DNA from: an uncultured Planctomycetota bacterium
GTDB taxonomy: Bacteria; Planctomycetota; J058
Assembly: GCA_964569055.1 (NCBI GenBank)
Contig: CAZMSZ010000001.1
Span: 1 to 59,460 of the forward strand
Direction: 5' to 3'
Length of the DNA stretch: 59,460 nucleotides
The notes beneath the pieces were generated by a model that worked only from the letters and a program-made list of their open reading frames with translations, was not told the origin of the DNA and made no database searches. The position numbers were made by a program, and so were the translations under genes. Shown piece by piece: positions 36,571-38,700 of this stretch (the first letter of the stretch is position 1; each line of letters begins with the position of its first letter).

Positions 36571-38700
36571 TCACGACGTCGGGAGCCGATCGAGCCGGTG
36601 GGGCGTCGGCCCCGCTCGTCGGCCCTCGTCCTGAGGCGCGGTCTCCTGGAGGAAGGCGGCGACGCGCTCGAGCACGCGCTTCTCGGCCAGGCGGACCACT
36701 ACGCAGCTCCGCACCCGCGGGTCGAGCCCACCCGCCGCGAGCAGGCGCTCGTCCTCCTCGATCGTGGTGGGATAGTCGGCCAGCGCTCGACGGCAGACGT
36801 CGTGCAGGGCGCGCCGCGTGCGCCGTTCGTTGACCGGTGAGAGCGGGGAGGCGGGGGTGCGCGTCCCGTCGAGGAGCGCGGAGAGCTCGGGTGCGTTCGC
36901 CAGCGCCACGCGCAGGAAGATCAGGGCCTCGGTGAGCGCGTCGTCCAGCTCGCAGCGGTACGGGAGCGTGCAGGAGCGCGTGCCCCCCGCCGGGAGCCCC
37001 AGGACCTCGCGGCGGCGGAGCTCCCAGCGATCGTGTGGCAGCGCGAGCTCCAGGGTCACGGTCTCCTGCTCGAGGTTGTCCTCGAGCACGAACCCGTACC
37101 CGAGCAGGTAGCGGACGTTGCTCTTCTCGCCGTAGGTGTCGCACACCGGTTCGCCGCGGGCAATGTCGCGCGCGGCGTGCATCGTGAACCGCTGGAGCTC
37201 CTCCGAGTAGCCCCAGCTCACGTCGGCCTGGGCGGGGCGGCGGTGGTTCAGCATGTCCGCCAGCGGGACGAGGCAGCGCGTGGGCACCCCGTCCAGCGTC
37301 AGGCCGAACACTCGGCTCACGATCACCAGCCGCGCCCAGGTGAAGGCGTCGAGCGTGTGCTGCCAGTCGGGCAGCGCCGCACGCAGGGCCTCATGGTCCC
37401 GCGCGAGCGACGCCCGGCGCTCCTCCAGGACCCGGGCCAGGCCCGTGCCCTCGAGCTCACGCAGCGTGGCGGCGTCGAAGAAGAACGGGTGCTCCGGGAA
37501 CGAGGCGGGGAGGGCGTCGATCAAGGCGCGCCACACCGAGTCCGGCCGCGCGCGCTCGTCCAGCAGGAAGGCGGCGAACGACGAGTCCTCGCTCTCGAGC
37601 CGCGCGCGGGCGCGCGCCAGCGCGCGACCGACCCGCGACGTGCTGGCCAGCTCCCGCGTGAGGATCGCGCGCCGCGGGAGCTCGAGCACGGTCGCCCCGC
37701 GCGGCAGGTCGGCCGTCGCGCGCGCTCCCCGGTGGCGGTCGGGCGCTTCGTCGATCGTCAGGCCGCGGACGCGTGCGCCCTCGCGCTCCAGCCAGCGCAC
37801 GAGCGCCTCGACCGGGCTCGCGCCCGGCGAGGTCACCGCAGGGCGTGGGTGGCGCTGCAGGAGCTGCCAGGTCCCGCGCGGCGTGCAGCCGTTGGCCGCG
37901 AACACCCGCTGCATGGGCGCGTTCTCCTCGCGGGTCGCGTCGACGTAGCGCTGGGCGCCCGCGGCGCGCAGGCGGTGCAGCGTCGCGGCATGGAGGGCCT
38001 TGGCCAGCCCCCGTCCCCGCGCCTCGGGGAACACGCCCATGAAGAGGATCGTGCCTGCGCGTGCGGCGCCTCGAGCGAACAGGCGCGCCAAAACCACGCC
38101 GACCTCGACGCCGTCAAGCGCCACCACGGCCCAGAGCGGGTCGGGTTCCCCCTCGATCAGGTCCAGCAGGTCGTCCAGCTCGGCCTCGAGGTCGAGCTGC
38201 GCGGGCCAGCAGCGGGCCAGCGCCTCCCGCAGGCGCGGGAGCCCGACCTCTCGGAGCGAGGCGTACGAGAAGGGGTCGCTGCGGGACTCCGCCGGCAGCC
38301 GCACGAGGTCGCACGCTACCCTCAGCTCGCGCCCGCGCGGCTCGTAGCCCTCGCGGCGCAGCCAGCCCACGTCCTCGGTGGCGGGCAAGTACGCCTCGAG
38401 CAGTTGTCCGGGCGAGCGCTCGTGGAGCCCCGCCAGTAGCGCGGCCTCGACCTCGCCCTGCCGGTCGTGTGGCGCGCTGTGTCCCTCGATCCGGAATCCC
38501 CCGGGCGTGGCGGTCCCGACCAGCGCTCCGAGGGGGACGCGGCCCTCCCAGGCCACGAGCACCGCCCGCGGGTCGCCACGGAGCGCGTCGCGCAGCTCAC
38601 CTTCGTCGAGGGGGTCGTCGGCCGCCGCGCGGGCCGCGCGGGCCAGGGCGATCCAGGCAGGGTCGTCGCCCGGGCGCGGAGGACGGACCAGGAGGGGCAC
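36571..38700 (-). CDS. GNAT-GNAT-SET domain fusion (N-acetyltransferase plus LSMT/SETD3-like protein methyltransferase)
   Basis: GNAT motif A is FMGVFPEARGRGLAKALHAATLHRL, with an upstream GNAT-like segment. SET motifs are LVPLADMLNHRRP and GEPVCDTYGEKSNVRYLLGYGFVLEDN. The C-terminal helical region (YPTTIEEDERLL) resembles a Rubisco-LSMT substrate-binding domain. Confidence 0.8.
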   Translation of the reverse strand: MPLLVRPPRPGDDPAWIALARAARAAADDPLDEGELRDALRGDPRAVLVAWEGRVPLGALVGTATPGGFRIEGHSAPHDRQGEVEAALLAGLHERSPGQLLEAYLPATEDVGWLRREGYEPRGRELRVACDLVRLPAESRSDPFSYASLREVGLPRLREALARCWPAQLDLEAELDDLLDLIEGEPDPLWAVVALDGVEVGVVLARLFARGAARAGTILFMGVFPEARGRGLAKALHAATLHRLRAAGAQRYVDATREENAPMQRVFAANGCTPRGTWQLLQRHPRPAVTSPGASPVEALVRWLEREGARVRGLTIDEAPDRHRGARATADLPRGATVLELPRRAILTRELASTSRVGRALARARARLESEDSSFAAFLLDERARPDSVWRALIDALPASFPEHPFFFDAATLRELEGTGLARVLEERRASLARDHEALRAALPDWQHTLDAFTWARLVIVSRVFGLTLDGVPTRCLVPLADMLNHRRPAQADVSWGYSEELQRFTMHAARDIARGEPVCDTYGEKSNVRYLLGYGFVLEDNLEQETVTLELALPHDRWELRRREVLGLPAGGTRSCTLPYRCELDDALTEALIFLRVALANAPELSALLDGTRTPASPLSPVNERRTRRALHDVCRRALADYPTTIEEDERLLAAGGLDPRVRSCVVVRLAEKRVLERVAAFLQETAPQDEGRRAGPTPHRLDRLPTS

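Follow-up and report, generated by a model that had tools for sequence, protein, structure and literature searches.

Methyltransferases of the Rubisco large-subunit methyltransferase (LSMT)/SETD3/SETD6 class pair a split SET domain with a helical substrate-binding lobe, and their named substrates, the Rubisco large subunit, actin and RelA, are all non-histone (PMC6684798). The tandem acetyltransferases of the GNAT superfamily, among them MshD (1ozp), VipF (6wqb, 7wx5), CBG (2wpw), GlmA (5kga) and MAB_4324 (7q3a), accommodate two lobes in ~290 residues, and in characterised tandem GNATs catalysis is confined to the C-terminal lobe (PMC10936415). None of these five is joined to a methyltransferase. 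The subject of the present analysis is a gene that unites the two kinds of enzyme in one polypeptide. It is an open reading frame (ORF) of 709 codons at 36571..38700, minus strand, in a stretch of 59,460 nucleotides (the window) from contig CAZMSZ010000001.1 of an uncultured Planctomycetota bacterium (GCA_964569055.1). The encoded protein consists of a predicted tandem GNAT, a SET domain and an LSMT-type substrate-binding lobe, and the gene lies in an island that encodes an extracellular contractile injection system (eCIS). In what follows, P0001 and similar labels denote proteins, L006 and similar labels denote loci, and residue numbers are those of the window protein.

The known cargo of contractile injection systems (CIS) consists mostly of toxins such as nucleases, lipases and deamidases. 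Bacterial SET proteins directed against eukaryotic hosts have been described in another setting: the nucleomodulins RomA/LegAS4 of Legionella, NUE of Chlamydia and BtSET of Burkholderia are delivered by secretion systems and have histone substrates. They are small canonical SET domains without a Rubis-subs-bind lobe, and their delivery is by type III or type IV secretion systems; NUE reportedly depends on a type III mechanism. Neither Rubisco-type SET enzymes nor fusions with acetyltransferases appear in a review of SET proteins from bacteria (PMC3980110). Likewise, the main text of two eCIS toxin surveys contains no mention of a SET domain, GNAT, methyltransferase or acetyltransferase, and no report of a SET-domain effector of the type VI secretion system (T6SS) was found in a literature search, which was limited by its library and does not amount to proof of absence.

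Architecture of the fusion protein

The ORF is a real gene. A protein identical to its product (P0001) is present in NCBI and in five Logan contigs, and the GC content at its three codon positions (GC1/2/3 of 0.80/0.53/0.93) is coding-like for a window of ~74% GC. It begins with GTG and ends with TGA, and a Shine-Dalgarno-like AGGA is located at 38708-38711, 7 nt 5′ of the start. The choice of GTG is supported by P0003, the sole other full-length relative, which aligns from residue 1, and an in-frame TAG at 38710-38712, 12 nt 5′ of the start, excludes a longer N terminus. Three Pfam families are recognised in the protein, Acetyltransf_1 at residues 155-269 (E 5e-12), SET at 324-524 (E 8.5e-8) and Rubis-subs-bind at 575-677 (E 5.5e-19), each above its curated cut-off (for SET, 33 bits against 22.4). 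This confirms the three-part arrangement of GNAT, SET and Rubisco-LSMT-like tail that an earlier note on this DNA had proposed from the letters alone. The motifs quoted in that note are also in place: FPEARGRGLAKALH at residue 224, LADMLNH at residue 480 and GEPVCDTYG at residue 516.

The SET part belongs to the LSMT/SETD3/SETD6 class by sequence profile, lobe, active-site residues and fold. The split SET domain, composed of N-SET, an inserted region and C-SET, occupies residues 297-545 (37066..37812, minus strand), and the helical Rubisco-LSMT-type lobe follows at residues 546-686 (36643..37065, minus; Pfam PF09273), where the pLDDT of the predicted structure exceeds 90. This AlphaFold2 model, built on 76 homologues, has a pLDDT of ~95 over residues 290-690. 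When residues 299-681 were compared with solved structures by phmmer, the matches were human SETD3 (E 4e-31), pea LSMT (3e-25) and SETD6 (2e-10). Human SETD3, the actin histidine-73 N-methyltransferase (6mbj, 6ict, 3smt), is thus the best match in sequence and has the same two-lobe architecture. In geometry the best fold match is LSMT, for which Foldseek gave TM scores of 0.77-0.79 (rmsd 3.2-3.5 Å), as compared with 0.64-0.72 for SETD3 and 0.70 for SETD6, at E values of 1e-18 to 1e-25. Like pea LSMT (1mlv, 1p0y, 2h21) and human SETD6, the fusion has the split SET domain, the helical Rubis-subs-bind lobe, Phe and Ala in the pocket and the catalytic Tyr; unlike them, it is bacterial, is joined to a tandem GNAT and is linked to injection-system genes, and its identity to them is ~25%.

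All residues required for S-adenosylmethionine (SAM) binding and catalysis by the SET domain are present, namely R463, D482, N485-H486 and Y523. They fall in three short segments on the minus strand: R463-V-F465 (37306..37314), the SAM-binding NH motif A481-D482-M-L-N485-H486 (37243..37260) and D521-T-Y523 (37132..37140), in which Y523 is the catalytic Tyr that corresponds to Tyr312 of SETD3. An alignment of the 76-sequence family shows no variation at R463, D482 and Y523, and conservation of 90% or more at F465, A481 and H486. The histidine pocket of SETD3 is formed by Asn255, Trp273, Ile310 and Tyr312, and at positions 255 and 273 the lysine methyltransferases SETD6 and LSMT have Phe and Ala (PMC6684798). 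In the HMMER alignment, the four positions are F465, A481, D521 and Y523 in the fusion. Since F465 and A481 match the Phe/Ala of LSMT and SETD6, the SET domain is predicted to be a lysine methyltransferase and not of the histidine type. A SETD3-like histidine methyltransferase was rejected because the Asn255/Trp273 pair of that enzyme is replaced by Phe465/Ala481, so that of the lysine or histidine specificity allowed for in the earlier note only lysine is retained. The third position differs from each of the lysine enzymes, with Asp521 in place of Ile in LSMT and Asn in SETD6. The single best phmmer match was 6v62, the N255F/W273A double mutant of SETD3 crystallised with a lysine-substituted actin peptide.

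The N-terminal module (residues 1-285) is predicted to contain one active acetyltransferase. Its C-terminal lobe, residues 141-285 (37846..38280, minus), is predicted to be catalytic; it contains the Acetyltransf_1 match and is conserved in P0003 and in a protein of L011. Within this lobe, motif A, R228-G-R-G231-L-A233 (38002..38019, minus), has the RxxGxA form of the loop that binds the pyrophosphate of acetyl-CoA, and R228 and G231 are invariant in an alignment of three N-module homologues. The catalytic-residue check proposed in the earlier note, for the SET domain and for this lobe, thus found both intact on alignment. The preceding lobe, residues 1-140 (38281..38700, minus), has no Q/RxxGxG/A motif and gave no direct match to any Pfam family or PDB chain in phmmer and profile searches; an hhalign comparison of the N-half and C-half of the module was in register and non-significant.

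Residues 1-140 are best described as a probable degenerate GNAT lobe of a tandem GNAT, a description that draws on a homologue and on a fold model of low confidence. The homologue is the stand-alone protein of ~306 residues from L011, recovered in a metagenome scan, to which the whole of residues 1-285 is related (tblastn E 1e-24); its N-half alone passes Acetyltransf_1 with 24.6 bits against a cut-off of 20.7. In the model, built from a two-sequence alignment (pLDDT 53.5), the GNAT order of helices and strands appears twice, and the top full-length fold matches in the PDB are all tandem GNATs (3tt2, MAB_4324, GlmA, MshD, VipF and CBG). In such comparisons of the low-confidence model, tandem GNATs and the N-module show 11-19% identity and TM scores of 0.4-0.5. 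On this description, the fusion resembles the tandem GNATs in having the acetyl-CoA motif in the C-lobe and none in the N-lobe. Because the N-lobe has no cofactor motif, a single active acetyltransferase site is predicted, following the rule established for characterised tandem GNATs (PMC10936415), and the N-terminal lobe is probably non-catalytic. The two acetyltransferase-like domains of the earlier note are therefore better described as one probable tandem unit; the stronger version, two active acetyltransferases, was rejected for want of the cofactor motif in the first lobe. The stand-alone tandem GNAT of L011 (~9620-10543, plus strand) retains a near-canonical cofactor motif, ERVGRA, in its N-lobe. 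It is flanked by a radical SAM gene and by a multihaem cytochrome gene that carries a type IX secretion system sorting domain.

Rarity of the fusion and its linkage to injection systems

The fusion is rare. When 1.84 billion representative proteins were searched exhaustively with HMMER, 5177 matches were obtained, nearly all to the SET part, and the same architecture was found in one other protein only. This is P0003, a singleton of 744 residues that is 39% identical to the window protein over residues 43-681. When the N-module was compared by BLASTP with the 150 best matches, P0003 alone was recovered; the N-modules of the two fusions are 35% identical (E 2e-34). Their linkers align as well, that of the window protein being RPAVTSPGASP (residues 286-296; 37813..37845, minus), of which T290, S291, G293 and P296 are common to both. 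Where other members of the SET family are extended at the N terminus, the added part consists of TPR repeats or of another SET unit and in no case of a GNAT. The closest SET homologues come from Minicystis, Melittangium and Vitiosangium, which, taken with two genes upstream of rnc that are described below, was read as a sign of a Myxococcota source genome, although the assembly is assigned to the Planctomycetota.

Further searches added few relatives. Whether started from the full protein, from the N-module alignment or from P0003, word-indexed searches recovered nothing beyond the query proteins and P0002, probably because high-GC, low-complexity words swamped the candidates. A scan of genome contigs gave one match, a SET-only gene of Vitiosangium, two metagenome scans gave only the tandem GNAT of L011, and a scan of viral contigs with the fusion alignment gave none. 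When a broad SET alignment was used on the viral contigs (IMG/VR), 23 distant SET-LSMT homologues of 22-31% identity were obtained (L050-L072). Sixteen of them are on contigs labelled as giant-virus metagenome-assembled genomes (GVMAG), most of the 23 are AT-rich (GC 0.17-0.28), and no CIS or T6SS marker was found on any of the 23 contigs, an indication that this class of enzyme is also in use among viruses of eukaryotes.

In neighbour-joining trees of the SET region, both fusions fall in one small clade with the unfused P0004, P0006 and P0018, and they are sisters in just 2-7% of bootstraps. Since the N-modules and linkers align, a single old fusion with later losses is the simplest, though unproven, reading.

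In the window, the fusion gene stands at the cargo-side end of an eCIS island of ~33 kb, which is bounded by two core genes, rnc at 5944-6669 and mfd at 39928-43500. The island encodes a sheath, a gp19-type tube, Pvc16_N and CIS_tube proteins, a VgrG-like spike (16662-18419), a DUF6519/Kelch protein and an ATPase with WHD and AAA domains. The ATPase gene (32053..34023, plus) is the final recognisable core gene; it is followed by c241 (+), c487 (+), the fusion (-), c339 (+) and mfd, so that the fusion is the third gene past the ATPase, antisense as the earlier note had described it. The GC content at third codon positions (GC3) is 0.82-0.94 for island genes, 0.93 for the fusion and 0.98-0.99 for the flanking core genes, a contrast that suggests horizontal acquisition of the island. 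By this value, and by the island genes with cargo-like leaders on both of its flanks, the fusion gene groups with the island. The note had also placed the gene in a less GC-rich block, which is wrong for the gene itself (GC 0.754, as compared with 0.67-0.71 in its neighbours).

The second fusion is in a similar position. On its 6.6-kb contig (L006), the P0003 gene is antisense and diverges head-to-head from a Pvc16_N gene; the next gene after Pvc16_N encodes a WHD-AAA ATPase 45% identical to that of the window. A published criterion places genes for eCIS-associated toxins (EATs) no more than ten genes from the final eCIS core gene (PMC11297309), and both the window fusion and P0003 lie within this distance. 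The earlier note had named a fusion widespread in genomes without a CIS as a refutation of its proposal; this check does not refute it, for the fusion was found just twice in public data, each time beside eCIS genes.

Some unfused members of the SET family are linked to the T6SS. The genes for P0007 (on a contig labelled Minicystis), P0016 and P0009 (Minicystis rosea, CP016211) adjoin VgrG, and their islands, L045-L047, also carry genes of the DUF2169 adaptor family, DUF3540 and Tox-PAAR-like genes. The adjacency of SET and VgrG is constant in L045-L047 although the gene order differs. In M. rosea (L047, 7883-11326), VgrG is followed by a 227-residue single-domain GNAT of the Acetyltransf_3 type and then by the SET-LSMT protein P0009, and the GNAT and SET genes overlap at their stop and start codons (ATGA). 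This GNAT shows only generic similarity to that of the fusion (E 0.05) and is not orthologous to it, so the pairing of GNAT with SET arose at least twice. A fourth locus, L048 (1429-14079), has the gene for P0012 placed 3′ of an Endonuclea_NS_2 gene and 5′ of a complete T6SS core cluster (TssB, TssC, Hcp, TssA, TssE, TssF, TssG and ClpV). The unfused homologues of L045, L046, L047 and L048 are thus located as T6SS cargo genes are, and the window locus itself is an eCIS. Indeed, the genomic signature of the unfused homologues is the same as that of T6SS cargo associated with VgrG/PAAR and DUF2169 adaptors. In total, half of the 12 SET-family loci abut injection-system genes, or four independent types of ~10 when orthologous islands are counted once; injection-system genes make up ~1% of a genome, as a rough estimate and not a computed null. 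The link of the SET family to contractile injection systems is real and recurrent.

Delivered effector or resident enzyme

The best reading of the fusion gene is as an accessory gene of contractile injection systems. Whether its product is itself cargo is less certain, and we put just short of an even chance on its being an injection-system-associated effector that modifies proteins by lysine methylation and acetylation. That the protein is an active enzyme, that it enters a target cell, how it is loaded, and what its target is and to which kingdom this belongs are all matters of inference. The effector would be exported with, or on, the contractile apparatus. Its helical C-terminal lobe would serve to bind a folded protein substrate, on which the SET domain, of the LSMT/SETD6 type, would methylate a lysine; the amine acetylated by the C-terminal lobe of the tandem GNAT would be on that protein or on one next to it. 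The modified protein of the target cell would probably be non-histone. VipF offers a partial parallel, as a secreted anti-eukaryotic effector of Legionella that acetylates lysines of eIF3-K (PMC10936415). Given that the fusion has no N-terminal eCIS signal of the known kind and that homologues are linked to the T6SS, we speculate that loading may be spike- or adaptor-bound, as for T6SS cargo.

A number of observations weigh against delivery. The most serious is that neither fusion has the N-terminal eCIS signal and that both are transcribed against the CIS genes; in these two respects they differ from EATs, with which they share a position a few genes from the last eCIS core gene. The signal is a very hydrophilic N terminus, with Pdp1 scored at -36.9 (PMC11297309). 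Kyte-Doolittle sums over the first 50 residues are -10.9 for the fusion and -16.7 for P0003, as compared with -40 to -58 for the products of c241 (-44), c487 (-58) and c339, whose leaders are rich in Ser, Pro and Arg. Weak scores for the loading signal are also seen in about 25% of known EATs (PMC11297309). In addition, the sole fully independent fused instance is L006, on its 6.6-kb contig. For the other six SET-family loci (L007-L010, L044 and L049), no injection genes were found in the available flanks, some of these contigs being short, nor were any found in the flanks of the stand-alone tandem GNAT of L011. Finally, no homologue of the SET part or the N-module occurs in any of 32 other CIS-ATPase loci (IMG/VR); the fusion is therefore not a general CIS component. 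Taken as a whole, the observation made in the earlier note is confirmed and its interpretation is partly supported.

If the fusion is delivered, both the T6SS and the eCIS would gain a regulatory, eukaryote-like kind of effector, a writer of lysine-methyl and acetyl marks. The fusion and the independent split-gene pair of M. rosea would together make a Rosetta-stone argument that both activities act on one substrate, which would make the search for that substrate tractable. eCISs are being engineered as protein-delivery vehicles, and if the fusion is cargo, its missing N-terminal signal would indicate a second eCIS loading route. We extend the proposal, tentatively and at somewhat below an even chance, to the family: LSMT/SETD6-type lysine methyltransferases may form an unrecognised class of CIS effectors in Myxococcota-like bacteria, recruited by both T6SS and eCIS, coupled to a GNAT at least twice independently (by fusion in two eCIS loci and as the translationally coupled gene pair of M. 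rosea), and placing methyl and acetyl marks on a protein of the target cell. If so, a testable biological role would fall to the bacterial branch of the LSMT/SETD3/SETD6 class, which is large and uncharacterised. What is new here is the domain architecture and, as a candidate, this effector class.

The main rival is that the enzyme stays in the producing cell. There it would methylate or acetylate a component common to the T6SS and eCIS (the spike or VgrG-PAAR, the tube or the sheath) or the cargo, and so tune assembly, loading or stability. Enzymes of the LSMT class do dock on folded proteins, and the C-terminal lobe of LSMT touches Rubisco away from the target lysine (PMC6684798). A role in the producer would account for the linkage to both T6SS and eCIS genes, for the missing signal, for the divergent or antisense orientation of the gene at each eCIS and for the retention of SET beside VgrG through the varied gene orders of L045-L047. 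The absence from the 32 other CIS-ATPase loci, however, means that such a modification is not generally required. In T6SS practice, moreover, enzymes encoded beside VgrG, PAAR or DUF2169 genes are usually cargo effectors, and no case is known to us in which CIS assembly requires methylation or acetylation. On balance we regard modification within the producer as unlikely, though it deserves to be weighed.

Stand-alone homologues also occur in ordinary neighbourhoods, beside hrcA and diacylglycerol kinase genes in Vitiosangium (L010) and beside leucine carboxyl methyltransferase (LCM) and redoxin genes in L007, among others, and the stand-alone tandem GNAT of L011 lies beside redox genes. These, together with the host-like composition of the fusion gene, would suit an endogenous myxobacterial SET-LSMT enzyme with a cellular substrate, for example a ribosomal protein or a translation factor, that travels as a passenger in variable islands hosting CIS or T6SS cargo. 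The fused form, however, was at an eCIS both times that it was found, its GC3 places it with the island and not with the core, island genes flank it on both sides, and four independent injection-linked types of locus stand against the roughly estimated ~1% expected by chance. A passenger is accordingly quite improbable in our estimation; it suits the data less well, as does the immunity function considered below.

The earlier note likened the pairing of SET and acetyltransferase domains to a chromatin writer. This special case of an effector, a histone-directed nucleomodulin delivered into eukaryotic nuclei, draws on the characterised bacterial SET effectors, which alter host chromatin (PMC3980110), and on the tandem-GNAT effector VipF, which acetylates histone-derived peptides in vitro (PMC10936415). 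The analogy was borrowed from a different SET class, that of the small-SET nucleomodulins, and the present protein belongs to the LSMT/SETD3/SETD6 class, whose named substrates are non-histone (PMC6684798). No nuclear-localisation-like basic cluster was seen on reading the sequence, and the target organism could be bacterial. The fusion also has a large docking lobe that the small-SET nucleomodulins lack. No search lent support to a role on histones, and such an action would seem a remote prospect. Most improbable of all is that the protein guards its producer against putative toxins encoded by c487 and c339: it does lie between these two putative cargo genes and has no export leader, but 709 residues with two intact enzyme modules are unlike a typical small immunity protein, the SET protein has been kept in the T6SS islands and at L006, where its neighbours are different and non-homologous, and no other locus examined has a homologue of c487 or c339.

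Neighbouring genes and minor features

The three genes around the fusion, c241 (34027-34752, plus), c487 (34815-36278, plus) and c339 (38851..39870, plus, the last before mfd at 39928), are putative cargo genes with hydrophilic leaders. Their products match no Pfam family and no PDB entry, and none of the other loci examined has homologues; they are plausible orphan cargo of the eCIS. In the earlier note, the fusion was said to lie between two EEP genes. This identity is unconfirmed for c487 and c339, which gave no Pfam match at E <= 10 and no PDB match, and which show no mutual similarity. Each does contain four short EEP-like motifs in canonical order, TLNL/ALQE/GDFY/DHAPV in c487 and SWNT/LVQE/GDLN/DHLPI in c339; c241 has no such motifs.

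The fusion gene and c339 are arranged head-to-head across an intergenic stretch of 150 bp (38701..38850), in which no sigma-70 consensus is present; a consensus scan for promoters and terminators around the gene came back empty, a result that is uninformative at 75% GC. At its other end, the gene encodes a C-terminal tail of residues 687-709 (36571..36642 with the stop codon, minus), which is mostly of low confidence in the model and is not conserved in P0003.

Several features of the related loci were recorded. In L006, a gene for a 323-residue protein (5607-6578, minus) is convergent with that of P0003; the product has an internal duplication and a coiled C terminus, matches no Pfam family and by eye looks like a tail-fibre or receptor-binding protein. 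In L007 (1603-3839), the gene for the SET-LSMT protein P0004 overlaps the downstream LCM gene, which makes a second pairing of eukaryote-like protein-modifying enzymes in one apparent operon. A 302-aa gene upstream of P0004 was tested as a split-off tandem GNAT and proved not to be one. Duplication has also occurred in the family: L044 (1256-4374) has two adjacent SET-LSMT genes, the first with a disordered leader of ~110 residues rich in Lys, Ala, Pro and Thr, and P0010, P0021 and P0023 each contain two SET-LSMT units in one polypeptide. In the window itself, upstream of rnc, there are genes for a Ser/Thr kinase fused to an FGE-sulfatase domain (1212-2834, plus) and for an M10 (matrixin) peptidase with a CarboxypepD_reg domain (4103-5947, plus).

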